Below, in pieces: positions 4,581 through 59,981 of a stretch of 64,000 nt of DNA. The notes beneath the pieces are model-generated. The model was not told where the DNA came from, made no database searches, and saw nothing but the letters and a program-made list of their open reading frames with translations. Made by a program: the position numbers and the translations under genes. The DNA is taken from positions 41,240 to 105,239 of the forward strand of contig CAZDLY010000003.1 in the NCBI GenBank assembly GCA_964506575.1, in the 5' to 3' direction. The stretch is from an uncultured Akkermansia sp. (GTDB lineage: Bacteria; Verrucomicrobiota; Kiritimatiellia; RFP12; JAAYNR01). Position 1 is the first letter of the stretch; each line of letters opens with the position of its first letter.

Positions 4581-4646
4581 AGGCGCTTGCAAAACGCCAC
4601 GCAAAACCGCGCCTGACGGCCTGTTTTGCGTGGCGTCTTGCAAACT
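4581..4646. repeat. REP-like palindromic element GGCGCTTGCAAAACGCCACGCAAAAC-15 nt-GTTTTGCGTGGCGTCTTGCAAAC
   Basis: Near-perfect 23-bp inverted repeat between gyrA and the GH38 gene. It shares the GCGCTTGCAA core with the elements at 34947 and 35859-35990 and is a likely terminator/insulator hairpin. Confidence 0.55.
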
Positions 4647-4839: not shown

Positions 4840-7335
<2,496 letters not shown>

Positions 7336-7343
7336 GGCGTCCC

Positions 7344-10058
<2,715 letters not shown>

Positions 10059-28742: not shown

Positions 28743-28850
28743 ATGGCAGTTCTGATGAGGGTCGTTGATCCGTAATCTTAATCGTAATCGTAATCCGTTT
28801 TCCAACAGGAGATTAAGATCAGGATTAGGATTAAGATGGCAATAGCCCTT
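28743..28850 (+). repeat. Structured repeat element copy 1 (CGTAAT hexamer arrays in inverted orientation) beginning with a mini-ORF MAVLMRVVDP
   Basis: A GAGGAGG RBS sits 4 nt upstream of the ATG at 28743, encoding a 10-codon ORF. This is followed by cgtaatcttaatcgtaatcgtaatcc ... ggagattaagatcaggattaggattaag. It is related to the element at 30303-30443 and shares the ATGGCnGTTCTGATGAGG start. Confidence 0.6.
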
Positions 28851-30302: not shown

Positions 30303-30443
30303 GCATGGCCGTTCTGATGAGGTCGTTGATTCGTAATCATAATCGTAATCATAATCGTAATCCATTCTCCGCCAGGAGATTAAGATCAAGATTACGATTA
30401 CGATTACGATTACGATTAAGGAGTAACCCTCATCAGAACTGCC
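30303..30443. repeat. Structured repeat element copy 2: long imperfect hairpin (GTTCTGATGAGG..CGTAAT/CATAAT arrays..loop..ATTACG x5..CCTCATCAGAAC)
   Basis: Outer 12-bp stem GTTCTGATGAGG/CCTCATCAGAAC plus about 40-bp inner stems of hexamer repeats. It lies between the convergent genes at 29221 (+) and 30448 (-). ORF 30305..30649 merely reads through it. Confidence 0.65.
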
Positions 30444-30982: not shown

Positions 30983-31384
30983 TCAGGGCATGGGGAGGCC
31001 GCCTGAATTGGTGACGGTCCCGGTATTATGATCGGTAGCGCTCGACGTGCACAAGACCCAGGGGCCCTGGACTGTTCCACCCAAGGTGTAGTCCTTGTTG
31101 CCCGTCTTGCACGTGGGCATTGCACCGCCCTTGATGTAGGCGGCGATTGCATTCGTGTTGGTATCTCCATTTCCCTTGACGTCTGCCGTCGCATCCTTGT
31201 TATCGGCCAGCGCCCACTGGTCAATGGCGTCGTAGATCAGACGCTTGTTGTTATTGCAGGTGCTCTTCTGCGTCGATGTGCGAGCCTTGATCAGGTTCGG
31301 CACGGCAATGACCGCCAGCAACGCAATGATCGCGACAACGATCATGATTTCGACAAGCGTGAAACCTTTTCTGTTGATCTTCAT
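30983..31384 (-). CDS. Type IV pilin-like / pseudopilin protein (copy 1)
   Basis: 133 aa from the ATG at 31384 (GAAGGA RBS). MKINRKGFTLVEIMIVVAIIALLAVIAVPNLIKAR prepilin N-terminus. Identical to the protein at 31638..32039. Confidence 0.8.
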   Translation of the reverse strand: MKINRKGFTLVEIMIVVAIIALLAVIAVPNLIKARTSTQKSTCNNNKRLIYDAIDQWALADNKDATADVKGNGDTNTNAIAAYIKGGAMPTCKTGNKDYTLGGTVQGPWVLCTSSATDHNTGTVTNSGGLPMP

Positions 31385-31576
31385 GATGTGAATCCTTCTT
31401 TTTTTGCTCCCGTTCAACCCAGCACGTAGTGCCGTGTGCGCAACCACGCGCTCTCCTTTTACGCCCGACTGTCAACTAACCGCCCCGGAATGAGACGATC
31501 CAATCGAGCCTTCGGGTATGATTGTAAGCCGAACTCACGCCAAACACAAGAAAATAGTTATCCGGAAAAAATAATA

Positions 31577-31637: not shown

Positions 31638-32039
31638 TCAGGGCATGGGGAGGCCGCCTGAATTGGTGACGGTCCCGGTATTATGATCGGTAGCGCTCGA
31701 CGTGCACAAGACCCAGGGGCCCTGGACTGTTCCACCCAAGGTGTAGTCCTTGTTGCCCGTCTTGCACGTGGGCATTGCACCGCCCTTGATGTAGGCGGCG
31801 ATTGCATTCGTGTTGGTATCTCCATTTCCCTTGACGTCTGCCGTCGCATCCTTGTTATCGGCCAGCGCCCACTGGTCAATGGCGTCGTAGATCAGACGCT
31901 TGTTGTTATTGCAGGTGCTCTTCTGCGTCGATGTGCGAGCCTTGATCAGGTTCGGCACGGCAATGACCGCCAGCAACGCAATGATCGCGACAACGATCAT
32001 GATTTCGACAAGCGTGAAACCTTTTCTGTTGATCTTCAT
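31638..32039 (-). CDS. Type IV pilin-like / pseudopilin protein (copy 2, 100% identical to copy 1)
   Basis: 133 aa identical in sequence. It is part of a roughly 478-bp exact tandem repeat (30923-31400 and 31579-32056) with a 656-bp period. Confidence 0.8.
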   Translation of the reverse strand: MKINRKGFTLVEIMIVVAIIALLAVIAVPNLIKARTSTQKSTCNNNKRLIYDAIDQWALADNKDATADVKGNGDTNTNAIAAYIKGGAMPTCKTGNKDYTLGGTVQGPWVLCTSSATDHNTGTVTNSGGLPMP

Positions 32040-34758: not shown

Positions 34759-34795
34759 GCCCGAGCCGCCTGCATAACCCTGTTTTACAGGCGGA

Positions 34796-34972
34796 GTGTT
34801 CAGGTTTCAGGTTTCAGGTTTCGGGTTTCAGGTTTCGGGTTTCAGGTTTCGGGTTTCGGGTTTCGGGTTTCAGGTTTCAGGTAGTAGCTCGCTCAACCAC
34901 AGTGAGTTGCGCGTTTTCTGAAACCTGAACACTGAAACCTGAAACCGGCGCTTGCAAGGGTTTGCAAGCGCC
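34796..34972. repeat. Heptamer tandem array (GTTTCAG/GTTTCGG x about 12) followed by the partial inverted complement (TGAAACC x4) and a GGCGCTTGCAA-GGG-TTTGCAAGCGCC hairpin
   Basis: Direct repeats at 34796-34882, complementary units at 34918-34946, and the REP-like palindrome at 34947-34972, immediately after the TauE stop. Confidence 0.75.
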
Positions 34973-34977
34973 TCAGC

Positions 34978-35120
34978 CCTTGTTATCAAGCACTTATCAA
35001 CAGTTGATAACAAGTTATTCATAACTATATAAACTATTGCATTGCAGATACTTAAGATGTTATAAATTTGTTCGTAACCTGTCAGTTCGCGGGTTGTTGA
35101 TAACGTGATGATAACTCGTT
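34978..35120. promoter_or_regulatory. AT-rich island (about 30% GC) with multiple TTATCAACA / GTTGATAA palindromic motifs; candidate operator cluster for the downstream XRE regulator, or a DnaA-box/DUE-like element
   Basis: cttgttatcaagcacTTATCAACAGTTGATAAcaagttattcataactatataaactattgcattgcagatacttaagatgttataaatttgttcgtaacc...ggTTGTTGATAAcgtgatgataactcg. There are two exact TTATCAACA motifs and two near-matches flanking an AT-rich stretch. Confidence 0.45.
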
Positions 35121-35318
35121 CTTGATTTGCAGGCCCGATATCGGCGATAGTGTGCGCAACCGGCGCCTCCCTGTTTCGTTGATTTACGCATTCTTGATGG
35201 AAGCGCGGGCGTCCCGCCCGCTTTGGGAAGCACGCGTAACTGCCAACGGTGTGGGCGGGACGCCCGCGCTCCCAGGAAAGCACCGAGACGGGGATGCGCC
35301 CGTGCACGCACGAAATCC

Positions 35319-35858
35319 ATGGAACGTTTATCTCCAGAACTGGCGGGGCGGCTGCGTGACGCGCGGCGTGTGAAGGGGCTGTCGCAGCATGCGCTGGCTC
35401 GTGAGGCCGGGTGCACGCAGTCGGCCGTGAGCATGATGGAGCTGGGGCGGCCGGATGCCGTGTCGCGCGAGACGTTGCGCAAAATCGGCGCGTTGCTGGA
35501 TGTCGAGGTGGGGGAGGCGGACGGCGCGCGGCCTGCGGGAGGGGAATGCCCGGCGGCGGGCGGGCGCGTCTGCTGTCCGCAGGCCGAGTGTCCCTCGAAC
35601 GTCCCGTTTGCGGTAGCCGGCTCGGTTGTTTTCCAGCCGCGGCCGCAGCCTGCGGGCCGCGCGGGGGTCTACTGCGGCTTTTGCGGCGAAGTGCTGCTGA
35701 CGGCCTGTCCTGTCTGCGCGCGGCCGCTGGGCGAAGGCGGCCATTGTCGCGAGTGCGGCGCGGCCTATGTGAATCCGCCCGCCGCTCCCGTCCTGACGCC
35801 CGCCGCCTGGGCCGCCGAACGGCGCAGGCAGATCGCCGAATGGCGCGCGTTGCTGTAA
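35319..35858 (+). CDS. XRE-family helix-turn-helix transcriptional regulator with a C-terminal Cys-rich (zinc-ribbon-like) region
   Basis: 179 aa from the ATG at 35319. HTH region LAGRLRDARRVKGLSQHALAREAGCTQSAVSMMELG, then CxxC..CP..C and CPVC..CREC clusters. Confidence 0.7.
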   Translation: MERLSPELAGRLRDARRVKGLSQHALAREAGCTQSAVSMMELGRPDAVSRETLRKIGALLDVEVGEADGARPAGGECPAAGGRVCCPQAECPSNVPFAVAGSVVFQPRPQPAGRAGVYCGFCGEVLLTACPVCARPLGEGGHCRECGAAYVNPPAAPVLTPAAWAAERRRQIAEWRALL

Positions 35859-35990
35859 GAGGCGCTTGCAAGAGAGGAGTCAGGAGTCAGAATACAGGAG
35901 TCAGAATAATCGAACACCCATTCTGAATACTGAATACTGGCTTCTGAATACTGCGCTTGCAAAACCGACGAAGGAGGTTTTGCAAGCGCC
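35859..35990. repeat. REP-like element: GGCGCTTGCAA, then heptamer repeats (GAGTCAG/AATACAG), their inverted complement (ATTCTGA/ATACTGA), then the GCGCTTGCAAAAC-12 nt-GTTTTGCAAGCGCC hairpin
   Basis: Sits exactly between the convergent XRE gene (stop 35858) and the 637-aa membrane protein gene (stop 35991) and is a probable bidirectional terminator. Confidence 0.7.
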
Positions 35991-42006: not shown

Positions 42007-45000
42007 CTATTCCATTTGCTTGAAAGCCCCGTCCGTCAGGCGGCCGCGGGCATAGCGGGCCCACTTGGATTCGGGATAGTCCCAGGTGCAGAGCCTGAAC
42101 ATGCGGTAGGCGCCGACCGGATTCATCGCCTGCATATAGGCGTCGCCGCACCAGTACATGGACTGCGCGATCAGGTCGGGCGCGCCCTTCTTTTCCGCGA
42201 TCACCGCCTCATAGGTGGTGATCGCCTTGTCGAACTCCTTGGCCCGGAGCCAGTTCTCGGCCGACAGCACCTTGGTGCTGGCCGCGAGCCTGTGATCGGG
42301 GAACCGCACCGACAACCGGCCGAACACCTGCGCCGCCGTACGGAAGAATTCCCGGGCCTGCAGCTTGCGCTTTCCAGCCGCAACGAGATCCGTCTCCTGG
42401 GCCGCCTCCGTCTCGAGGAGCCGGCCCTTGTTAAAGAAGAAGAGGCCGAGCCGGGAGATGGTCTCCGCGATCAGCTCGTGGTTGGGGTAGCGGTACGAGA
42501 GCTTGACGTACTCGTCGCAGGCCGTGTCGATCTCCCCCATCCGCTCGTAGACCAGCGCCTTCTTGAACTGCGCTTTCGGGGCGTACGCGCTGTCGGGGTA
42601 GCCGCTGATCACGTCGGCGAAGCGGTTGGCCGCATCCCGATAGAGCTGGTTGCGCTTCTCGGGTTGCGTGGTCTGCTCGCCCTCCTCGAACGCGAGGTTG
42701 GCCAGCAGGTAGTCGGCCTGGACGCGGAACTCGTTCTTCGGGAAGTCCCGAATCGCCTCCTCCAGCAGCTTCTTGCCTTGCGCGATCGTCCGGCGGGCGA
42801 CCTCATCCTCTTTGAGCCCGCGATATTTCTTGGCCATCTCGAAGTAGGACTCGGCCATCGTGAACTGGGTCTGGACCGCGATTTCGGCATCGTTGAAGCG
42901 CTTGCTGAACGGCGTGACGGTGGCATCGGCGCCCTTGAACACCGAGAGTGCGCGATCCAGCGTGCGCCCGTCCTGGGCCGTGTACCGGAGCACGACCGTG
43001 GCGCCGTAGGGAACGGCGATCTGGTCGGCCAGCCGCGTTTCGTTCGTCATGCCCTCGTAGACGAGCTGGAGGTTGCCCTTGAACACCCCGGAGTTCTCGA
43101 ACGTCTCGATCAGCGGAACCGTCTTGGCGGTCTGCGCGGCGCCATTGACGACAACCGACAGGGAGACCGTGTCCTTCTCCATCGTGAGATTGGACATCAG
43201 ATCGACGACGCGCAGATACAGCCGGTCCCCCACATAAAGCGCCGAGAGCGGCTCCCTGTACCGCTGGTCCATGACGTCAAAGATCGGATCGCCGAACAGG
43301 CTGACATCCCACACCTCCCACTTCGGCTCGGCCTCGGCAGGCGAGCTGTTCATCGCCACGCGCAGCCGGTCGCTGGGCCGCACCCGCAGCGTGGGCCACG
43401 GGAACGTGCGATTGATCGACGCCGACTGGCCATCCTCCGTGAGGCAGGCGACGTCAAACACGCCCATCTCCACGCCTTCTTCCTCCTTCTCCTGATACGT
43501 CGGCATCTTCATCTGCTCGAGCGAGCCGGGCGCGGTCGCGATGCTGAACACGTAGCGGCCGTCGTCCGCCACCGAGCCGGCGAACTTGTCGCCGACGAGC
43601 GTGGTCGAACCGTACGTCACCGGCATTTCGCCGGCGGCGCCGCCGCCCCGCAGCGCCCGGTAACGGATCGTTCCGGGCAGTTTCGGGTCGAAAGGCGCGC
43701 CATTGGTGACCACGGGCTTCATGCCCGCCGGCAGGATCTGAACGAATATCTCGGCCTCGCTGAGCGCGGAGAACGCGAGGGAGGGGTTGAGCAGCTCGGC
43801 CACCAAGAATCCGCCGTACGGAATTTTCACCGGCCCCTTCGGAACCGCGCTTTCCGGGCGCACGCCCGTCAGCGCGTATGCAGGCGCAATCGCCTCGAGG
43901 CTTTCGGCCGTCTTCTTGGACGCCGGGGCGCTCACGGCCACCGCCCGCCCGTCCGCGTTCAGGGGCCTCGACGTGAAATCATACACGCGCAACTGGGACT
44001 TCATCGGGCCCAGTGGCGGCTCGAGCTGCACCACCCGGTCCCAGGGCACGCCGAAATCGACGTTTTCCTTGTCGCGGTAGGTGATCACGAGATCGTCTTC
44101 CTGGGTCACGGTGATTTCCGCCGGCCGCTTGGCCTCGCCCAGGATCGGGAAGAACCGGCTGACGAACAAGCCGCTGGCCGGCTTGTTCTCCAGCATCACC
44201 AGGTCGGTCTTGCTGCCCGTGACCGTCGCGCGCACATGCACGGGGACCTTGTCCGGATTCGCGGTCTCGTCGGCGTCGGGGTCGTTGACCACGATGGCCA
44301 TCGGTTCGTCCGGCCGGAACCGGTTGTTCGGCAGCAACAACGCCCGGCGCTCGCCCGCCGGCGTCACATCGCTTTCGATCAGATAGGCCTTGAGCGACGC
44401 ATTGTAGAAGGTGGTGGACAGAAACGCCTCCAGTGTCTTGCGCGCCGGCGTGATCACGGTCCGGTCTTCGTAGGTGATCGTGATCTTGTCGCCCGGGACG
44501 ATCTCGAGGATATCGTTGCCGCGCATGGTGATGAGATCCTCCTTGGCGGGGAGGACCTGCTTGCCGGCCGCGTCGGTCAGCGCGATCTTCCGGATTTCAG
44601 GGGCGCCGGACTCGAAATCAAAGATCTTGAGACGCAGCACCCGGCCGCGGGTTTCGGGGGCGAACGCGACATCAAACACGGTCCCGTCCGGGTTGGCCTT
44701 GATTTCCGTGGGCTTGAACCCGGGCGGCGCCTGGTGCTCCGGCCACCCGGCGGGGGTGAAGACCGCCTCCGGCACGGGCGCGGTATAGGGGGCCGTCTCA
44801 ACGTCCCAGAGGAGCTGATAGCCCCCCTCCGCGCCGCTGGGAATCACCGCATACAGGTCGAGCGTGTGGTACCCGCGGGTCAGCGTGACGGTGTTGTTAC
44901 GGTCATTGCTGCCGGGGGGCGCCCCCTGTTGCGCGGCCCCCAGGGCTCCGTCAATGGCGAGGTAATAGGTCGGTTCGACCCGCTTCGCCGGATCCGACTT

Positions 45001-48000
45001 GGCATCCGCCTGGGGCTGGACGGTAAACGTGCGCTTCTGTCGTTTCTGAATGTAAAACGTCCCCTGCAGATGGGCCAGCGTCAGGCCGCTGGCGCTCTTC
45101 CCGCCCAACTTCGCCTCGGCCGCGCGGACCGCCTGGCTCAGATCGCCGGACACATGGCCGGGCGCGATCTCGATCGGATTATCGAACTGCAGCCGGCCGA
45201 CATCAAAGAACTCCTTCACCTGCGCCTGTCTATCGGTCGGCGTGAGCAGGCCGGCCGCAAGCGTCGACGCGGGCGGGCCATAATTGACCAGGCGCAGACG
45301 GAGGGAGCCGTCCCAGGCCGCCGTGGCGCCCGGCCACGAACCGACCATCGCGAACTCGGAGCCATTCATGGACGTTTGCAGCGCGAACCGCTTGAGCTTG
45401 CGGCCGGCCACGTCCGCCGTCATCGTGAGCTTGCCGAAGGCGACGCTGTCTTTCAAGTCAATGGAGAACGTCTTGTTCCGATTATCATCGGCCGACCCGG
45501 CCCACGGCAGCAGCTTCGGGTCGGCGACGATCACCGCCGTGGGGTCGCGCCCCTCCGCCGTATCGGAGGCGAATGCGGTGGCCGGCGCCGACAGCGTCGC
45601 CAGCTTGCCCTCGAACACGCCCGTGTGGGTGTCCGTTTCGGTCAGAACCACCCGTTTGACCGTGTCCCCGCTCGTCGCCGCGGCCCGGACGGTGAGCGTG
45701 TCTTTCTGGTGCGTCGTGTTGCCGTCCGGATCGATCACGCGGATATAGATGGGGTTGCCGGGTTTGATTTCGGTGCTGGAACGGACCGCGCTGAGCTTGA
45801 CCTCGGCGCCCTCTTTGGGCGCGTTCAGCAGTTGCAGGAGCTGCGCGCCTTCGGCCGATTGGGCGCCGGATCTCGCCAATTCGCGGCGCAGGCTCGCCTC
45901 CATCGCCATCCGTTCCTGATCCTCGCGCGTCGGTATGCTCCCGGAGGCCGCATACAGCTCGCCGTCGGTGATCACGCCCAGGGTGCCGATATCGTCACGG
46001 GTGATGTTGGCGACCTTGCGAAAGCGCTCGGACAGTCCAAAGTGAACCTTGTCCCCGCCGAGCACCTGCAGCAGATGGTCACCCTTGACCAGGGGCGCCA
46101 TCGTCGTGGGGATCTCCCCGCGGAAACGCGTCTTGGAGTCGCCGAAGGGGAACAGCTGGAAGAACTCTTCGTCGCCGGAGTCGGTCCAGGCGCGAATCTC
46201 GATATCCGCGGCCTTGCGCACGATCGACAGATTGCGATCTTCGAGATTCACCCGGAACGGCCGTCCGGGAATGATGGTCTGCTGATCGGCCGGAACGCCG
46301 ATCCGGATATCCGTGGCCTCGATCAGCTTGGCGGTCTTGAAGTTCACCTTGCCTTCGAGCAGGCCCGCCTCGCTGTGGTTCGGCGCGATGGCGAACACGC
46401 GCGCGACTTGTTCGCGCGCGCTGGCGTAATCCTCTTGGTCGAATTTGAGCAACGCGATCTGATAGCGCGCCTCGGCCTGGATGGAGGTGTCGCGGAGACG
46501 GTCGAGCTTCTCGAGCCGTTCGAGCGCGGCGTCGTACGAGCGCATCAACCGGTCCACTTCGGCGATCTTCAGTTCGGCGCGATAGCCGCCCGGGGTGTCG
46601 GCAAAGTCCTTCGACGAAACGATCCGGTCATACTGGGCCTTGGCCTGGGGATACTGCTGACGGGCGAAGGCGATGTCGGCGTAGGCGATCTGCACCTGGG
46701 CCCGGGTCCCCGTGTCGAAGCCCTGCGGGGCCGCCTCGATCCACTGGAGCAGCGTCTGCGCGAGTTTTTCGGCTTCCTCAAACCGGTCGAGCGCCGTGAG
46801 GCGCTGGACGATCCAGATGACGAAGCCCAGGTCCAGATCCTTGAATTCCGTGAGCGCCAGACCCGGATTCTGGGTGTACAGGTCCCACGCGCTGTCCGTC
46901 CGTCCGGCGTGGAAGAGCGCCTGGGCGGCCAGGATCGTGTACCGCCGGTCGCTCCGGCCGACCGTCAGGGATTCGCCCACCCGCGACTGCATCTTGGTGC
47001 GGATCGCGGTCAGCGCGTTGCGGATGTCATCCGGAAGCCGGGAACCCGCGACGGCCAGGCCGATCGTGCTGTGCGCCGCCGCCGGCACGGTCCGGTCCTC
47101 CTCGATCAGCTTGCCCGCGATGCCGCCGAGCAGCGCCATCGTTTCACCCCGGCCCAGGGCGATGCGCCACATCTCGGGGATCAGGGGCAGCAGCTCGGTG
47201 ATCTGGTCGCGCGCCAGCAGACCGTCGTTGACGAGCTGGATCAGCCGATAATCGGTCGGACTGTAGACGGCCCACCGGGTGTAACGCAGACACCCGGCCA
47301 GGGCCAGCACTTCGTCCTCCGTCAGCGGCGCGGTCCCCCCCAGTTGCAGGCTGTTGACCTGCTGCAGGGCGGGCATCGGGAACGGATACGGGGCGTTTTT
47401 GGCGAGCGCGGTGTAGGCGCGCAGCCGGTCGAAGAAGGCCTTGCGCTCGTCGGGCGTCTTGACCGGCATCACGGCGAGCGACCACAGGCCGGCCGCCGGC
47501 GGGTCAAACCGGGTCTTGCCGAATTCGGCCTCGATCTTCTTCTGATAGTCGCCGAACGCCGCGCCGGAGGCCGACCGGATCCGCTCCGCGGCCGCGAAGT
47601 AATCGTCGCGCGAAACCTGCGCCGGCTTGCCGGGCGCGCCCAGGAAAACCGCATACGACGTGTCGGCCGCATACTTCTCGGCGATCGCGTTGGCCACTTT
47701 CTTCTCGCCGTCGCCGGCGTAGTTCCAGTACGACTGATCGACCTTTCCCGTCCGCTTGATCTCGGCCGCCATGCGGTCATCAAACCACGACTGCTGCGGG
47801 TACTTGGCCTGCAGCGCGGGGAATTCGCGCACCATCGCCAGATAGCCGCAGACCGGGCTGGGGGCGTAATGGCCGCCGTTATTCTTGGTGAAGATGTCGC
47901 GGTCGATGATCTCCCCGAGGACCGCCTGCGCCTGTGCGCCCTCCGGCCGCGCCACCCCGCGGTACCAATTGAACACGTCTCCGTCCCACTGGTCTTTGGC

Positions 48001-50265
48001 GGAGCGCGCCTGGATCGCCTTGGCCAGCACCTCCGCGAGCTTGTCGCGCAGCGCATTGTCTTCCGCCCGCGGGCGGAGCACCACACCCCAGTCGAGCCGC
48101 CAGCCGTTGCGGGTCGCGAGCATCTGCGCACAGACCGCCGCGCCGCGGCGCTGCGCCGGGTCTTCCTGCCGCAGCGCGAGCTGGTCGGCGAACAGGCCGA
48201 TCTGGTGGTCCAGACAGGCCAGCGCGTCCGCGCGCGGCGTCATGAGGAGCGCGAGCAGCTTCTCGCCGAAGGGGGTCTTGTTCTTCTGGTACTCGCGAAC
48301 GGACGCATACAGGGACTTGGCCGCCGTCGCATACGCGGCGGCGTCGCCGGCCTCCACGGCCTTGAGCAGCGAGGCGACGTCCCGGCACTGCTGATTCGGC
48401 GCCTTCGCCGGGTCGGCCTTGGCCGCGATGGCCTGCTTGAAGGCCTCTTCGATCTTGGCGATCTGGGTCACGACGGCTTCCAGTTCCGCGCGGCGCCTGA
48501 CCTCCGCCTCGCCCGTCTTGCCGGCCAGGCTGTCGGCCTGCTTGCGCATCGTCTGGCTCCACGCGCGGAAGGCGGTCTGCGCGGCCTCGAACACCCGGTC
48601 GCGGCTCTCAACCCCCGCGTAGGGCACGAGGGGCGCCCAGTCCAGCTTGCCCAGCAGGACGATGAAGCGGTCCCGGCGCGCCGCGTCGGTGCTGCAATAA
48701 TTCCAGGCGTTGAGCAGCGCGTGGCGGATATGCTGGGGGGAGAAGGGCGTCATCACGCTGTTCAGGAGGGGGCCTTCCAGGAAGGCCAGATACGCCTCCT
48801 GGGCATAGGCGTCGCGATCGGCCGGCTGGGGCAACCCCTTCAGGTTGACCCAGGCGGGGATGATCTGGTTAAAGACCAGATACGGGAATACTTCGACGTC
48901 GCCCTGCGGGATGGGCCTCTGCACGGCTGCATCCCGGAAGGGCATGTACCACGACTCCTGCGCGAGCAGGTGCTGGATCGAACCGATGGGGTCGTTGGCG
49001 GCCGCCAGGGCGTTGATCACCGCGGCGATGTAAAACGTCTGGCCGGCCAGGAACGGAGCCTGGGCCTTGTAAACCGCCGGGTTGGTGGCCTGCGTGATCC
49101 ACGGCAACTGTCCCGTCGCCGCGGCCTTCTGGAACGCCTGCGGATGCTTGCCGCCGAGCGCGATCCACTGGTCGGGCGTGGCCAGCCCGGCGGGCAGCCC
49201 GGCCCACGACCAGTTGATGAAGGCGATCTGCTCGGCTTCGGGGAGCTTGCTGAAGGCGTAGGTGGCGAGGAACTCGCTCTTCTGCGCGGCGGCCGCGCTC
49301 CAGAGGCCCGAATCCGGCTGCCCGGCGCCGCGGCCGGGCGCGGCCGGCAGGTCGGGTCCGCCGGCGAAGGCCGCCATGATCTGGATCAGCGTCTGCGCCG
49401 TCGGCGCGGCGTCCAGGTAGGCCCGCGCGGCGGCGAGGACCGGGTCCAGGGCGCGGGCGAGCGCGGGGGCATCCCGCCCGACGCGGGTCTCATGAAACGC
49501 GATGTTCTCGATCAGGAAGGCGAGGCGCGCCTGGCGAATCGGATCCTCGCGGATGAGCGGGATCAGGGCGCGCGCCGGAATGATCGCCTCGGCGTTTCCG
49601 GGATAGACGGTCTCCAGCCGGTTGATCAGCCGGTCCAGATGGTGCCAGTAGATGAAACGCTCCTGCTCCAGCGGCAGTTTCTCGGAGAAGGCCGTCAGCA
49701 GCCGCTTGGCCATGGCGCCGGTGGCGCGGTTCTGGAAGCCGGTATCGAGATACCACCCGTCGTATTGCCTGGGCAGGGCCGCCAGACGGAATTTGTCGCC
49801 GAAGTCGTTGTTCGCGGCCCACGCCTCGACGCCCTTCCCGGCGTAGTCCGCCAGGACTTGGAAGCACTCGCCCGCCGCCTGGGATGAATCGGCGTCCACC
49901 GGCGCAATCTGGAGGAACTGCCGGTAGCGCGCGGCCGCGGCCTGATAATCGCCCGCCAGCTTCGCATTCTCCGCCGCCAGGCGCAGGATCCGGGGACCCG
50001 GATCGGCGCGCCGGGACAGGTAGCTGCGCACGACACTGGAGACCCGCTGGGGCTGGCCGAGGTCACGCCCCTCCTGCAGCAGGGCGATCAGCTCATCCGG
50101 CTGCAGGCCTTCCACCGAGCTTTGCGCGCGGCCCAGCAGCTCGTCAAATTTAGCCGTCCGCGGGTTTGCGGCCGCCGGGGCGGCTGCCGGGGCGGCTGCC
50201 GGGGTTTGCGCCACCGCCGTCCAGACCGACCCGAGAACGCACGTGACAAGCATGAATCGTTTCAT
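42007..50265 (-). CDS. Giant secreted protein (2752 aa) with a signal peptide and a C-terminal TPR-like region
   Basis: ATG at 50265 with an AGGAGAAA RBS (MKRFMLVTCVLGSVWTAVAQTP signal peptide). Ordinary amino-acid composition across 8.2 kb. The C-terminal roughly 350 aa are TPR-like (YFEMAKKY...YLLANLAFEEGE...ALVYERMGEIDTACDEY...). The antisense ORF 41596..49887 (2763 aa, R/G/L/P-rich) is rejected. Confidence 0.8.
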   Translation of the reverse strand: MKRFMLVTCVLGSVWTAVAQTPAAAPAAAPAAANPRTAKFDELLGRAQSSVEGLQPDELIALLQEGRDLGQPQRVSSVVRSYLSRRADPGPRILRLAAENAKLAGDYQAAAARYRQFLQIAPVDADSSQAAGECFQVLADYAGKGVEAWAANNDFGDKFRLAALPRQYDGWYLDTGFQNRATGAMAKRLLTAFSEKLPLEQERFIYWHHLDRLINRLETVYPGNAEAIIPARALIPLIREDPIRQARLAFLIENIAFHETRVGRDAPALARALDPVLAAARAYLDAAPTAQTLIQIMAAFAGGPDLPAAPGRGAGQPDSGLWSAAAAQKSEFLATYAFSKLPEAEQIAFINWSWAGLPAGLATPDQWIALGGKHPQAFQKAAATGQLPWITQATNPAVYKAQAPFLAGQTFYIAAVINALAAANDPIGSIQHLLAQESWYMPFRDAAVQRPIPQGDVEVFPYLVFNQIIPAWVNLKGLPQPADRDAYAQEAYLAFLEGPLLNSVMTPFSPQHIRHALLNAWNYCSTDAARRDRFIVLLGKLDWAPLVPYAGVESRDRVFEAAQTAFRAWSQTMRKQADSLAGKTGEAEVRRRAELEAVVTQIAKIEEAFKQAIAAKADPAKAPNQQCRDVASLLKAVEAGDAAAYATAAKSLYASVREYQKNKTPFGEKLLALLMTPRADALACLDHQIGLFADQLALRQEDPAQRRGAAVCAQMLATRNGWRLDWGVVLRPRAEDNALRDKLAEVLAKAIQARSAKDQWDGDVFNWYRGVARPEGAQAQAVLGEIIDRDIFTKNNGGHYAPSPVCGYLAMVREFPALQAKYPQQSWFDDRMAAEIKRTGKVDQSYWNYAGDGEKKVANAIAEKYAADTSYAVFLGAPGKPAQVSRDDYFAAAERIRSASGAAFGDYQKKIEAEFGKTRFDPPAAGLWSLAVMPVKTPDERKAFFDRLRAYTALAKNAPYPFPMPALQQVNSLQLGGTAPLTEDEVLALAGCLRYTRWAVYSPTDYRLIQLVNDGLLARDQITELLPLIPEMWRIALGRGETMALLGGIAGKLIEEDRTVPAAAHSTIGLAVAGSRLPDDIRNALTAIRTKMQSRVGESLTVGRSDRRYTILAAQALFHAGRTDSAWDLYTQNPGLALTEFKDLDLGFVIWIVQRLTALDRFEEAEKLAQTLLQWIEAAPQGFDTGTRAQVQIAYADIAFARQQYPQAKAQYDRIVSSKDFADTPGGYRAELKIAEVDRLMRSYDAALERLEKLDRLRDTSIQAEARYQIALLKFDQEDYASAREQVARVFAIAPNHSEAGLLEGKVNFKTAKLIEATDIRIGVPADQQTIIPGRPFRVNLEDRNLSIVRKAADIEIRAWTDSGDEEFFQLFPFGDSKTRFRGEIPTTMAPLVKGDHLLQVLGGDKVHFGLSERFRKVANITRDDIGTLGVITDGELYAASGSIPTREDQERMAMEASLRRELARSGAQSAEGAQLLQLLNAPKEGAEVKLSAVRSSTEIKPGNPIYIRVIDPDGNTTHQKDTLTVRAAATSGDTVKRVVLTETDTHTGVFEGKLATLSAPATAFASDTAEGRDPTAVIVADPKLLPWAGSADDNRNKTFSIDLKDSVAFGKLTMTADVAGRKLKRFALQTSMNGSEFAMVGSWPGATAAWDGSLRLRLVNYGPPASTLAAGLLTPTDRQAQVKEFFDVGRLQFDNPIEIAPGHVSGDLSQAVRAAEAKLGGKSASGLTLAHLQGTFYIQKRQKRTFTVQPQADAKSDPAKRVEPTYYLAIDGALGAAQQGAPPGSNDRNNTVTLTRGYHTLDLYAVIPSGAEGGYQLLWDVETAPYTAPVPEAVFTPAGWPEHQAPPGFKPTEIKANPDGTVFDVAFAPETRGRVLRLKIFDFESGAPEIRKIALTDAAGKQVLPAKEDLITMRGNDILEIVPGDKITITYEDRTVITPARKTLEAFLSTTFYNASLKAYLIESDVTPAGERRALLLPNNRFRPDEPMAIVVNDPDADETANPDKVPVHVRATVTGSKTDLVMLENKPASGLFVSRFFPILGEAKRPAEITVTQEDDLVITYRDKENVDFGVPWDRVVQLEPPLGPMKSQLRVYDFTSRPLNADGRAVAVSAPASKKTAESLEAIAPAYALTGVRPESAVPKGPVKIPYGGFLVAELLNPSLAFSALSEAEIFVQILPAGMKPVVTNGAPFDPKLPGTIRYRALRGGGAAGEMPVTYGSTTLVGDKFAGSVADDGRYVFSIATAPGSLEQMKMPTYQEKEEEGVEMGVFDVACLTEDGQSASINRTFPWPTLRVRPSDRLRVAMNSSPAEAEPKWEVWDVSLFGDPIFDVMDQRYREPLSALYVGDRLYLRVVDLMSNLTMEKDTVSLSVVVNGAAQTAKTVPLIETFENSGVFKGNLQLVYEGMTNETRLADQIAVPYGATVVLRYTAQDGRTLDRALSVFKGADATVTPFSKRFNDAEIAVQTQFTMAESYFEMAKKYRGLKEDEVARRTIAQGKKLLEEAIRDFPKNEFRVQADYLLANLAFEEGEQTTQPEKRNQLYRDAANRFADVISGYPDSAYAPKAQFKKALVYERMGEIDTACDEYVKLSYRYPNHELIAETISRLGLFFFNKGRLLETEAAQETDLVAAGKRKLQAREFFRTAAQVFGRLSVRFPDHRLAASTKVLSAENWLRAKEFDKAITTYEAVIAEKKGAPDLIAQSMYWCGDAYMQAMNPVGAYRMFRLCTWDYPESKWARYARGRLTDGAFKQME

Positions 50266-50298
50266 AAAATGTTTCTCCTGTTTCGTTCCGTACAACGG

Positions 50299-56195: not shown

Positions 56196-58313
56196 TCATA
56201 AGAAACCTCGCTTGAGAACCACGCTCAACACTGCCAGATCGGCCGGCGTCACGCCGGGAACACGGCCGGCCTGGCCCAAATTGACCGGACGCACCCGGCT
56301 GAGCTTCTCCCGGCACTCATACCCCAGCGCCGGGATCTTCCCATAGTCCACCCACGACGGGATCACATCGGCCTCCATCCGCAACGCCCGCTCCGCCTGC
56401 CGCCGCTCCTGCTCGATGTACCCGCGATACGCGATTTCCAACTCCACCTGTTCGACAACGACCGCGGGAAGCGCGGGATCGGCACACGGCAGATCCGCAT
56501 ACCGCGCCCCGGGGCGGGCCAGATGCCGCGACGCCGCGGCGCCATCGGCGAGATGACGTGCATCGAGCCGCGCACATTCAGCCGCGATCAACCGGGCATA
56601 CCGCTCCGTCTCATCCCGAAACACCGGATCGGCCAGCCCCAACCGCTGCGCATGGGCAAGCATCCGAAACCGCGCATTGTCCTGCCGCAGCAACAGCCGC
56701 CGCTCCGCCCGCGACGTGAACATGCGATACGGCTCGTTCGTCCCCTTCGTCACCAGATCGTCAATCATCACGCCGATGTACGACTCCTGGCGGCCGAGCA
56801 GCAGCGGATTCTCATCCCGGACACGCATCGCCGCATTGACTCCGGCAACAAAACCCTGGGCCGCCGCCTCCTCATAACCGGTCGTGCCGTTAATCTGCCC
56901 CGCAAAGAACAAGCCCGCATGCCGTTTGGACTCCAGCCCGTGCGTCAGCTCGCGGGCGTCGATAGCGTCGTACTCGATCGCGTAGGCGTACGCCAGAAAC
57001 CGGGCCTGCTCCAAACCGGGTATCAGCCGGACCAGACGCTCCTGAACCTCGCGAGGCAGGCTGTTGGATATCCCGTTCGGGTAAATCCAGGCTGAGTCGC
57101 CCCGCCCCTCAGGCTCCAAAAAGACATGATGGCTCTCCTTGTCGCCAAATTTGACGATCTTGTCCTCCAGCGAGGGGCAATACCGCACCCCCGTCCCGCT
57201 GATCCCGCCGCCATACAACGCGCTGCGCGCGAGGTTTTCCCGAATCACCTGATGACAGGCGGACGTCGTGTGGGTCAGCCAGCAGGAGACCTGCCGGGCG
57301 CCCCCCAGGACGCTATCGTGTGGCGGGCTGATGCCAGCCGCGCGATGATCCGCCGCTGGCGACTCCGGATACGCCCTGTTCCACGTGGAACATTCATTCG
57401 GCGCTCCGCCGCGGCTCGTCTCCGAGCCCGGGCACACATCCGCCGCTGGTGACGACGGGAACGCCGTGTTCCACGTGGAACATTCACCCGGCGCCCCGCC
57501 GGGGTCCGTCTCCGAGCACACATCCGCCGCTGGCGTCGCCGGGAACGCCCTGCTCCGCGTGTAACCATCGGCCCGCGCTGCCCGCACACGCGCGCCACGC
57601 CACGAAAAGAGCGGCGGCGGCTCGTCGCCCGCCTGCTCCTGGGTCTGGCAAAAATCAATGGAGGCCGGGTCGAGGCGCGGGGGTGTTCCGGTTTTCAACC
57701 GAAGCCTTTCATATCCGGCGTCGCGCAGGCTATCGGAGAGGGCCTGGGCGGCGGCGCGCCCGTCGCCTCCGCCCGGCGAGACCTCATGCCCGACATGAAT
57801 CGCCCCCCCCAGCGCCGTCCCGGTTGTCAGCACGACGCAACGACCGGCGATGCGCCCGTGTCCGGCTGTCTCGACGCCGGCCAGCCGCCGCTGCGGTCCG
57901 GTGTCCGCAAAGGCCAGCGCGATGACCTCATCCTCCATCACCCAAAGATTCGGCGTGGATTCGACGACCGCCCGCAGGCGCGCCGTGTAGGCGGCCTTGT
58001 CGCATTGCACCCGCGTGGCCCGCACGGCGGGGCCGCGGCTTACATTGAGCACCCGGAACTGGATGCCGGTGCAATCCGCGTTGAAACCCATCTCGCCGCC
58101 CAGTGCATCCAGTTCATAGACCAAGTGGGATTTAGCCAGGCCGCCGATGGCCGGGTTGCAGGGCATTCGACCGATCGCGTCTCGGTGAGCGGTGATCAGC
58201 AGGGTTTTGCAGGTCATCCGGGCGGCGGCAAGCGCCGCCTCGGACCCGGCATGTCCGCCGCCGACGACAATCACATCCCACCCGTCCCCGCTGGTCCGAC
58301 CGATGCTTTTCAT
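56196..58313 (-). CDS. mnmG: tRNA uridine 5-carboxymethylaminomethyl modification enzyme MnmG (GidA), carrying an internal minisatellite-encoded insertion of about 90 aa
   Basis: GidA signatures ([38 protein letters not shown]-terminal [14 protein letters not shown]). Start at the ATG at 58313. Residues encoded at about 57348-57567 are 2.5 tandem copies of an 87-nt unit. Confidence 0.92.
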
Positions 58314-58448
58314 GGCCGATAGGATAACGCGTCTTCCGCCGTTCGTCCAGCCCCGTATGATCCTCGATCCGGGGGAGTTATGCACAACACGACCCAACCG
58401 CTCCGGAAACCAGATTCACTCCTTAACTATCGATAGCGCCGCGTGTTT

Positions 58449-58491
58449 ATGTATTCATAAACTGTTGTAGTCGTTGTATTTATGAATACAT
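58449..58491. promoter_or_regulatory. Perfect 13-bp inverted repeat ATGTATTCATAAA-17 nt-TTTATGAATACAT in the AT-rich mnmE-mnmG intergenic region
   Basis: Lies in the 285-nt intergenic region, which is AT-rich by eye, and a TTATCAACA motif sits at about 58544. Candidate regulator-binding site or hairpin. Confidence 0.4.
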
Positions 58492-58598
58492 CAAATGGGG
58501 AGCCCCGTCACGCCGATGCGTTCATGGGGGGTTGATGTCGACCGGATATTGACTACTTATCAACAAGTTATGATTGGAGTCTAAGTGCTGATTCACAA

Positions 58599-59981
58599 TT
58601 ACTTACCGACACAGAAGCGCGCGAACACCGTATCCAGCAGGTCGTCGCTGTAAATGGTTCCGGTAATCCGCCCCAGCGCTTCCGCCGCTTCGCGCAGGGG
58701 AATCGCGGCGAGGACCAGTTCGTCCGGGTGTGCGAGGAGGCCGGTCGCCCGCCGGATCGCGGCATTCGCGGTTGTCAGCTCCACGGCGTGCCGCTGGCTG
58801 ATCGCCACCGCCTCGTGTGTTCCCGCGCAGGCCTCCAGTTTGGCCTGCAGCGCCTCCGCAACGGGCCTCGCCCCGTCAGGCGTGAGGGCCGAACAGCGGA
58901 CCCTGGCGACGGCGGCGGGGAGGTTCCAGGCGGCGGCCAGCGCCGCATTCCCGGCACAGTCGGGGCGGTCGGCTTTGTTGACTGCCACAATCGTCCGTTC
59001 AACCGGGAGCGCGGCGATCGCCTCCCGGTCCGCCGCGTCGGGAGGCGCCGTCCCGTCCACGACATAGATGACCCAGTCGGCCGCCTCTGTCAGTTGGCGG
59101 GCCCGGGCGATTCCTTCGCGTTCCACGGCGCACGCGGCGTCGCGCAGGCCGGCGGTGTCGGCCAGCCGCAACGGAATGCCGTTGAGGGTGTAACCCTCCT
59201 CGATCGTGTCGCGCGTGGTGCCGGGGGATTCGGAGACGATGGCGCGCGGATGCCCCAGCAGCGCATTCAGGAGCGACGACTTGCCGGCATTGACCCGGCC
59301 CGCGATCACCGTCAGCGCCCCGTCGCGCAGCAGTTGCCCTTCGCCCCAGGTCGCGAGCAGCGCCTGAATCCCGGTGACGACCGCGCCCAGCTCGGTTCGC
59401 GCGGTCTCCAGGAACGGAGGGGGAATCTCCCCCTCCTCGAAGTCGAGCAGGGTCTCGATGTCGGCGCACACGGCGGTCAGGCGCCCGTAAAGCGCCTCCA
59501 CGCGCCGCCGCAGCCCGCCCGCCGCCTGTTCCCTCGCCGCCCGCGCCGCCCGCGCCGTCTGGGCCTGGATCACATCGAGCACCGCCTCGGCCTGCGTCAG
59601 GTCGAGGCGTCCATTGAGGAAGGCCCTCCGCGTGAACTCGCCGGGCCCCGCCGGCTCCGCGCCGGCGTGAAACACGGCCTGCAGCACCTGGCGCGCGACG
59701 ACCGCACCGCCATGGCCCTGCAGCTCGACCGTGTCCTCGCCGGTATAGCTGCGGGGGGCCCGGAAAATCAGCACGATTCCGTCGTCCAGCGCCGCCCCCG
59801 CCGCGCCGTCCGCAAACGTGGCGTGAAAAAACGTCCCGGCCGGCCGCTGCGACGGCGGCCGGCCCGCGCACCGCGCCACGCGGTCGGCCACGGCCAGCGC
59901 CTCCGGCCCGGAGATCCGCACGACGGCCACACCCGCCGGCCCCGCCGCCGTCGCCAGAGCTGCAATGGTTGATCCGGGCAT
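58599..59981 (-). CDS. mnmE: tRNA modification GTPase MnmE (TrmE)
   Basis: G-domain motifs (GRVNAGKSSLLNAL, DTAGLR, NKAD) and a C-terminal FCVGK (CxGK) motif. AGGGGGA RBS. Confidence 0.93.
   Translation of the reverse strand: MPGSTIAALATAAGPAGVAVVRISGPEALAVADRVARCAGRPPSQRPAGTFFHATFADGAAGAALDDGIVLIFRAPRSYTGEDTVELQGHGGAVVARQVLQAVFHAGAEPAGPGEFTRRAFLNGRLDLTQAEAVLDVIQAQTARAARAAREQAAGGLRRRVEALYGRLTAVCADIETLLDFEEGEIPPPFLETARTELGAVVTGIQALLATWGEGQLLRDGALTVIAGRVNAGKSSLLNALLGHPRAIVSESPGTTRDTIEEGYTLNGIPLRLADTAGLRDAACAVEREGIARARQLTEAADWVIYVVDGTAPPDAADREAIAALPVERTIVAVNKADRPDCAGNAALAAAWNLPAAVARVRCSALTPDGARPVAEALQAKLEACAGTHEAVAISQRHAVELTTANAAIRRATGLLAHPDELVLAAIPLREAAEALGRITGTIYSDDLLDTVFARFCVGK

Follow-up and report, generated by a model that had tools for sequence, protein, structure and literature searches.

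An AT-rich island of candidate DnaA boxes coupled to a conserved XRE/double-zinc-ribbon regulator gene in Kiritimatiellota and Lentisphaerota

In the window analysed here, the whole 64-kb stretch of contig CAZDLY010000003.1 from an uncultured Akkermansia sp. of the Kiritimatiellia, an AT-rich island at positions 34978-35120 carries a cluster of DnaA-box-like 9-mers of the type TTATCAACA upstream of a gene for an XRE-family helix-turn-helix (HTH) regulator (35319..35858, plus strand; 179 aa), whose C-terminal part is an eight-cysteine double zinc ribbon followed by a terminal helix. The island is coupled to this gene and to its promoter across the phylum-level group formed by the Kiritimatiellota and Lentisphaerota. 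The reading that is held here with somewhat better than even confidence, on the basis of comparative sequence data, is that it represents a non-origin DnaA-box cluster in the upstream promoter region of this conserved XRE/zinc-ribbon (XRE-ZnR) regulator gene. It displays the features of such clusters, namely at least four boxes in about 100 bp, boxes abutting a predicted promoter, and a conserved association between cluster and gene. The protein binding the boxes would be DnaA, the island would probably couple the regulator to the replication state, and it is probably not the chromosome origin itself.

The sequence that the original prediction quoted for the island is present, and the island is indeed the lowest and broadest AT trough of the 64 kb, with a minimum of 23.7% GC per 80-bp window compared to 34-39% in the next troughs; in 100-bp windows, its GC content is 32-38%, for a mean of 65% over the 64 kb. 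Four of the five copies of the heptamer GTTATCA in the window fall within 34982-35115, and TTATCAACA with at most one mismatch occurs four times in the 143 bp of the island but only nine times in the entire 64 kb. In controls matched to the composition of the island, 0.09 (20,000 mononucleotide shuffles) and 0.12 (20,000 first-order Markov simulations) such 9-mers are expected per island, and four were reached in 0/20,000 of either.

Including two weak ones, six boxes are distributed over about 135 bp as two arrays that converge around a box-free AT-rich core of 58 bp, the start-to-start distance inside each flanking pair being 11 bp (9-mer plus 2 bp). In the distal array, the weak box 1 (TTATCAAGC, 34983..34991, plus strand), with two mismatches to TTATCAACA, has the orientation of box 2 and precedes it by 11 bp; its ATCAAG core is invariant in an alignment of five orthologous islands, as is box 2 itself, a perfect lineage-type box (TTATCAACA, 34994..35002, plus strand). 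Box 3 (TTATCAACT, 35002..35010, minus strand) stands head to head with box 2, and the two jointly form the 17-bp palindrome TTATCAACAGTTGATAA, i.e. TTATCAAC-A-GTTGATAA, so that the palindrome noticed at the outset is real. The core that follows (35011..35068, no strand; about 20-25% GC) differs in sequence among the orthologues and is constant in length. On its other side, a weak minus-strand box with two mismatches (TTACGAACA, 35069..35077) is recognized by the invariant TGTT..AA columns read directly from the alignment, and its position is conserved in the orthologues, which carry TTGTGAACA, TTACAAACA, TTGTAAACA or TTATTAACA. Finally, the proximal array comprises box 4 (TTATCAACA, 35095..35103, minus strand), again a perfect match, and 11 bp from it box 5 (TTATCATCA, 35106..35114, minus strand), which has one mismatch and ends 7 bp before the -35 hexamer of the predicted promoter.

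No known RNA or tRNA was detected in the island by Rfam (gathering thresholds, whole window) or ARAGORN, and a generic σ70 scan gave a single weak minus-strand match within it. A candidate internal promoter spotted by eye, TTGCAT-18-TGtTATAAA (35037-35066), was dropped, being absent from the orthologues. Besides, no clear CTA/TAG-type trio run follows either box pair; the published criterion for DnaA trios and the basal unwinding system (BUS), (NAN)≥3 within 16 bp (PMC8287927), is too permissive to discriminate when the DNA is AT-rich.

The predicted promoter directly 3' of the island, on the plus strand, consists of a -35 hexamer TTGATT (35122-35127), an 18-nt spacer and a -10 hexamer GATAGT (35146-35151). 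That this pair would be the σ70-type promoter of the XRE gene is suggested by conservation: CTTGAT and ATAGT are invariant among the five orthologues, a CTTG(T/C/A)(C/T)-N17-18-(C/G)ATA(C/G)T element is found directly 3' of the island in almost all of 80 related loci, and is present also where the island is lacking, and in relatives this promoter-like element is located about 20 nt before the ATG.

Homologues of the XRE protein occur throughout metagenome-assembled genomes (MAGs) of the Kiritimatiellia and Lentisphaerota, where they form 86 protein clusters found at 244 places in species-representative genomes. Among the complete genomes of the clade, OW818680.1 has its XRE homologue at 0.72 Mb (total length 6.1 Mb), and the assembly published for Kiritimatiella glycovorans has dnaA at its start. 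TATCAACA is present in 71 of the 80 distinct upstream regions compared (XRE-ZnR homologues at 37-88% identity), in a total of 176 copies compared to 1.6 expected from the flanks (113-fold), and the 10-mer TTATCAACAG has at least three matches (at most two mismatches) in 71/79 upstream regions. The genes flanking these loci vary, and nearly everywhere the related island forms a local AT trough, with 20-35% GC as compared to 50-70% in the genome. In orthologues at 88, 77, 71 and 59% identity, the boxes are invariant, whereas the spacer drifts in sequence at constant length, the distance from distal to proximal hexamer being 93 bp in the window and in loci L007, L002 and L003 (88%, 77% and 71%). 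Box positions are fixed relative to the conserved -35 and -10 elements, with plus-strand boxes at -200 to -150 and minus-strand boxes at -140 to -50; the polarity of the arrays relative to the promoter is likewise conserved, and many lineages possess an additional plus-strand box between the -10 element and the ATG. Most boxes across the family are direct repeats; the spacing of same-orientation neighbours has its maximum at 10-12 bp (9-mer plus 1-3 bp), whereas convergent pairs show offsets of 8, 9, 11 and 23 bp.

The same coupling is seen when starting from the boxes. In 740 kb of related DNA, 62 clusters of at least three boxes lie upstream of an XRE gene (within 420 bp) and five elsewhere; four of these five are found at dnaA-dnaN or upstream of dnaN, and the fifth, in locus L012, precedes its XRE gene by 538 bp and probably represents an island that an insertion has shifted. 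A metagenome scan for the 17-mer palindrome returned at least 120 unrelated, mostly AT-rich contigs, and among the matches listed none has an XRE-ZnR gene or at least five boxes. The view of the original prediction that this is a discrete regulatory island tied to the XRE gene is borne out.

Outside the island, the same box is found at the replication genes of relatives. Clustering of neighbouring genes identified 17-19 loci in which dnaA, dnaN and a gene for an RlmL-like methyltransferase are directly upstream of the XRE island, the order in the longer loci being mnmG-nhaP-dnaA-dnaN-rlmL-island-XRE, and in 19 related loci the island is located 0.5-2.7 kb downstream of dnaA-dnaN or dnaN. Upstream of dnaA, TTATCAACA is present as an inverted pair (L088, 5614/5628; L090, 9892/9906), and all 17 dnaA-dnaN spacers contain several T[TG][AT]T[CG]AACA boxes, which usually end as a tandem pair followed by an AT-rich stretch. 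Locus L019, whose XRE gene belongs to a different subfamily, shows directly upstream of dnaN an array of six boxes, five of them in one orientation, together with an AT-rich stretch with CTA repeats; its XRE island is separate from this array, beyond a tRNA-Gln gene. At none of these sites in the relatives, be it before dnaA, between dnaA and dnaN or before dnaN, was a canonical TTATCCACA seen. The box of the island is asymmetric and matches the universal DnaA box at 8/9 positions, with A instead of C at position 6. The reading of the motif as DnaA-box-like thus fares better than was expected when it was proposed. A lack of the motif in the vicinity of dnaA had been named as the sign that would speak against it, and the opposite was found, since relatives carry the same TTATCAACA on the upstream side of both dnaA and dnaN as well as in the spacer between the two genes. 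In the window, the only other perfect box is a solo TTATCAACA at 58557..58565 (plus strand), 160 bp upstream of mnmG. L088 and L090 likewise possess perfect boxes upstream of this gene, which recall the cluster of DnaA boxes located upstream of thdF-gidA in B. subtilis. The mnmE-mnmG spacer (58398-58598) also includes a 14-bp AT-rich inverted repeat (about 58447-58490).

A changed box would be expected to go along with a changed DnaA, whose base-contacting positions are residues 399, 423, 432-435 and 438-439 (PMC5043019). When aligned to the domain IV structures of E. coli, B. subtilis and M. tuberculosis, helix 5 of DnaA in the clade reads KTHATV as compared to RDHTTV (R432K, D433T, T435A), and residue 423 is variable too. 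The search with a rumen-type DnaA returned only proteins at least 60% identical and did not reach the lineage of the window; in each of the 120 close homologues whose motif is readable, this motif is non-canonical and without RDHTTV, the complete K(T/S)HATV being present in 43 and a partial motif only, K(T/S/K/N)H and once RRH, in the others. Among the nearest representatives at 50% identity, x(T/S/N)HAT(V/I) is common, and more distant ones display (R/K)DH(T/S)TV. K(T/S/N)HAT(V/I), in place of the near-universal (R/K)DH(T/S)TV, is the helix-5 signature of a whole clade of DnaA proteins, among them that of L088 (5722-7152). A precedent is provided by the Epsilonproteobacteria, in which the contact motif of DnaA and the box have changed together (Jaworski et al. 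2016, PMC5043019). Both cases have in common that a clade-wide change of the base-contact motif in domain IV comes with a changed box consensus (TCATTCACN in the Epsilonproteobacteria; PMC5043019). The positions differ, however, since here C is replaced by A at box position 6 and the protein changes are D433 to T/S/N and T435 to A, and the box is deduced from sequence. Because the same box clusters at dnaA and dnaN, because TTATCCACA is not seen there and because the contact residues of DnaA are changed, TTATCAACA(G) is most likely the DnaA box of the Kiritimatiellota and Lentisphaerota.

The kind of element proposed here is a known one. In B. subtilis, DnaA is stably bound at non-origin clusters of 4-8 boxes in 45-100 bp, mostly near the origin (Ishikawa et al. 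2007, PMC2533591); it activates sda, which encodes a small checkpoint regulator and has a promoter with five upstream DnaA boxes, and represses ywlC and yydA (PMC2533591). The island resembles these clusters (sda, ywlC, yydA and thdF-jag) in that 4-8 boxes are gathered in about 50-100 bp of an intergenic promoter region, mostly in origin-proximal position, in that the association between cluster and gene is conserved across related species, and in that the adjacent gene is regulated by DnaA or proposed to be so. It differs by its box variant TTATCAACA, by its XRE HTH/double-zinc-ribbon target and by a conservation that spans the phylum rather than the genus. Compared to sda in particular, converging arrays around an AT-rich core are not described there, and regulation is here read from the sequence. 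By analogy, DnaA monomers would nucleate on the two perfect boxes (34994 and 35095) and oligomerise across their weaker neighbours, the AT-rich core of about 58 bp allowing the DNA to bend between the two arrays. The nucleoprotein complex, ending 7 bp from the -35 hexamer, would then set the activity of the XRE promoter, either by activation or by repression, in such a way that expression of the regulator would report the DnaA level and the replication status, in the manner of the B. subtilis genes sda, ywlC and yydA. Sequestration or titration of DnaA at the island is a plausible side function.

The original prediction had considered for the island the oriC signature, i.e. DnaA boxes flanking an AT-rich unwinding element, and such an origin could have been split from dnaA and kept beside the XRE gene. 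This is very unlikely, even though the island is the densest cluster of DnaA-type boxes and the deepest AT trough of the 64 kb, with boxes in both orientations and an 11-bp phasing. Converging arrays with such a phasing resemble those of E. coli oriC, and in E. coli, too, the origin is separated from dnaA. The window contains the origin-proximal genes invoked in this context, gyrB-gyrA (4840-10001) and mnmE-mnmG (56196-59981), all on the minus strand, but lacks both dnaA and dnaN. No origin-like change point of the GC skew was detected at 35 kb in the 64-kb window, in which the best score is at the window edge and the skew takes more negative values on the right side of the island. Coding sequence is about 85-90% minus-strand on either side according to gene calls based on GC at third codon positions (GC3), without any switch of orientation; given this dominance, an origin at the island would leave about 28 kb to its right head-on to replication. 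In the related loci where the island lies near dnaA-dnaN or dnaN, the local cumulative-skew minimum does include it, and in 16 dnaA/dnaN-linked loci the right-minus-left skew is +0.085 (Wilcoxon p = 6e-5), these loci being non-independent and having always the same three genes in their left flank. In the 41 loci without dnaA linkage, however, the mean difference is -0.009 (not significant) and plus-strand coding amounts to 54% on the left and 57% on the right, hence no divergence of orientation. Since the shift is seen in linked loci only, the origin signal follows dnaA-dnaN and not the island. Moreover, the dnaA-linked genomes own a separate, classically placed box array with an AT-rich stretch directly upstream of dnaN, and the island, only about 135 bp long, is kept in fixed register with a promoter. 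A locus of the E. coli datA/DARS type, in which the cluster would mainly titrate DnaA or alter its nucleotide state, a nucleoid protein would bend the two arrays together over the AT-rich core, and the link to the XRE promoter would be secondary, also appears unlikely. The likeness lies in a non-origin cluster with oppositely oriented box sets around an AT-rich, bendable segment, here of conserved length, and the high box density and the origin-proximal location in many lineages would fit as well; datA and DARS are, however, not coupled to promoters and depend on IHF/Fis and a defined box geometry, whereas this cluster is never detached from the XRE promoter in the 740 kb of related DNA, and the conserved -35 register and the box downstream of -10 in many lineages indicate transcriptional control.

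A third possibility, to which a rather low probability is given, is that the TTATCAACAG boxes are operators of the XRE-ZnR protein, which would occupy the palindrome as a dimer and the flanking repeats in a cooperative manner; a loop across the AT-rich spacer may join the distal and proximal sites, by which the protein would repress or activate its own gene's promoter. In that case, it would also regulate replication genes through the boxes near dnaA and dnaN. Operators for the XRE protein had at first been preferred as the simpler explanation, and they remain a live rival. Site cluster and gene co-occur in about 70/80 loci in changing contexts, the perfect 17-bp palindrome has the size typical for HTH dimers and is located about 150 bp upstream of the inferred start, the 93-bp distal-proximal spacing is conserved despite a diverging spacer sequence, and the recognition helix is invariant family-wide. 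Repeated sites including a 17-bp palindrome before a regulator gene, together with the same HTH fold, are also what characterizes the XRE/Cro-cI operators (SinR, HipB, C-proteins, lambda cI), and HipB, C-proteins and SinR, which the HTH domain resembles, are autoregulators. Nevertheless, this explanation accounts for less of the data. The box is an asymmetric 9-10-mer that occurs mostly as direct repeats with a 10-12-bp phasing, and convergent pairs have variable offsets (8, 9, 11 and 23 bp), for which reasons it fits the monomeric domain IV of DnaA better than a fixed dimer operator. Furthermore, the identical box recurs upstream of dnaA, at dnaA-dnaN and upstream of dnaN, sites that would otherwise be without any DnaA boxes; its match to the universal DnaA box at 8/9 positions would have to be due to chance, at odds of about 1 in 10^4; the contact residues of DnaA in relatives are altered as a changed box would require; and upstream boxes are lacking in one XRE subfamily whose recognition helix is the same. 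Binding of DnaA and autoregulation by the XRE protein might, besides, co-exist at shared sites. Several observations nevertheless weigh against the preferred reading of a non-origin cluster bound by DnaA. As the recognition helix of the XRE protein is invariant across the family, conservation of the boxes does not discriminate between the two binders, and a 17-bp pseudo-palindrome TTAT[C/A]AACAG[T/G]TGATAA, which by an estimate made by eye recurs in roughly a third to half of the islands, is what a dimeric HTH operator would look like. The subfamily that has the promoter and no boxes shows that the coupling has exceptions. For the altered DnaA motif, the evidence comes from other lineages of the clade only, and it would apply to this genome by extrapolation. 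Lastly, the dnaA-linked genomes have the island inside a local skew minimum (7.4-10 kb in L088; change point at 14450 in L091), and there it may be part of the origin.

Non-origin DnaA-box clusters and DnaA-regulated promoters are established kinds of elements; what appears to be new here is the box variant, the accompanying DnaA substitutions and the link, across the phylum, with an uncharacterised XRE/zinc-ribbon regulator. A literature search for DnaA boxes or oriC of the Kiritimatiellota and Lentisphaerota yielded no paper, and, to our knowledge, replication control in the Planctomycetes-Verrucomicrobia-Chlamydiae (PVC) superphylum is almost unstudied. The joint claim that a DnaA with x(T/S/N)HAT(V/I) would read TTATCAACA, as a re-tuned initiator code, and that its strongest non-origin cluster would drive the XRE regulator in a conserved replication-coupled circuit, is a doubtful one when taken as a whole; the regulator may in addition recognise these boxes as well and exert a feedback on initiation and on dnaA and dnaN. 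If true, the PVC superphylum would possess a checkpoint or origin-regulator module that has so far gone unrecognised. Should the reading of the island as a DnaA-box cluster be right, TTATCAACA, with the matching protein substitutions, would be a working DnaA-box consensus for the Kiritimatiellota and Lentisphaerota, so that origin-prediction tools that assume TTATCCACA would need TTATCAACA and the K(T/S/N)HAT(V/I) signature. The uncharacterised HTH and zinc-ribbon regulator would likewise become a conserved single-gene candidate for a DnaA output, with a logic comparable to that of the Bacillus sda checkpoint. It would also follow that an island that is origin-like in its box count and AT content need not be an origin, which bears on the automated oriC annotation of MAGs.

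Regarding the XRE gene itself, the island had been placed upstream of an adjacent XRE gene; the coupling stands, but the gene does not adjoin the island and starts 200 bp downstream, because a hairpin of about 150 nt is inserted in its leader. This GC-rich, near-perfect hairpin (35156..35305, plus strand; RNA fold -94.3 kcal/mol, z = -6.4) is missing in the orthologues L007, L002, L003 and L010 (59-88% identity). Insertions akin to it are found between island and ATG in L014, L082 and probably L012. At the protein level, the N-terminus matches the Pfam families HTH_31 (5e-10) and HTH_3 (6e-9), and the AlphaFold2 (AF2) model, with a predicted local distance difference test (pLDDT) score of 82, displays a five-helix HTH fold. 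A Foldseek search with this model retrieved HipB, C.BclI and SinR, matching the N-terminal 55-70 residues only, and gave no structural match for the C-terminal eight-cysteine region, whose eight cysteines are invariant in the family; NCBIfam gave sub-threshold generic HTH matches only. In 27 related loci (about a third), an ELM1-like (PF06258) gene lies 3' of the XRE gene on the same strand at about +1 kb (e.g. L021, 4544-5695); it is not present in this window. Two loci, L064 and L065, both from MAG CAMORM01, hold two different XRE-ZnR paralogues, 53% and 76% identical to queries from different subfamilies and each having a box cluster of its own, a pair that reflects either a true duplication or bin contamination.

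As for the surroundings, the plus-strand genes upstream of the island code for a PolB-exo-like protein, deoC and a TauE exporter, and are followed by a 150-bp hairpin made of GGTTTCR heptamers and then by the GC-rich palindrome GGCGCTTGCAAGGGTTTGCAAGCGCC (34946..34973, no strand), which borders the island on its upstream side and, located behind TauE and this hairpin, probably represents a terminator or a repetitive extragenic palindromic (REP)-like element. The core of this palindrome, GCGCTTGCAA / TTGCAAGCGC, brackets the island and XRE unit (34948-34971, 35862-35871 and 35953-35989; also at 4583) as a 13-nt perfect inverted repeat with copies 884 bp apart. A mobile cassette with GCGCTTGCAA inverted-repeat ends was considered and rejected: the palindromes occur only in the window, in L007 and partly in L002, and not in L003 or L010. 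Because it is limited to the closest relatives, the GCGCTTGCAA/TTGCAAGCGC palindrome probably represents a terminator or REP element particular to this lineage rather than the end of a transposon. A prophage immunity region was likewise rejected in view of the housekeeping neighbours and of the conserved chromosomal gene, which in many genomes comes right after dnaA-dnaN-rlmL.

Hairpins built of tandem 6-7-mers with their complements on the opposite arm are present in the window at 34795-34946, 35875-35952, 28771-28795 and 30331-30418, an example being GGTTTCR x12 / CTGAAAC x4 (DNA fold z = -7.3). Hairpins of like construction with other unit sequences occur in distant Kiritimatiellia relatives (L088, 480-780; L091, 14100-14330; upstream regions of L082 and L085), which suggests a clade-wide class of terminator or REP-like elements. 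In addition, two adjacent, near-identical genes for type IV pilin-like (N_methyl) proteins (30983-31447 and 31638-32039), with identical shadow open reading frames (ORFs), represent a recent tandem duplication of about 655 bp. The coding region of mnmG contains a 90-bp unit repeated 2.5 times (81% identity; 57348-57565), the MnmG protein of 733 aa being unusually long compared to the typical one. Finally, a giant ORF of about 2763 aa occupies 42010-50298 on the minus strand; GC3 favours this minus frame, the plus-strand ORF of equal length being its shadow.

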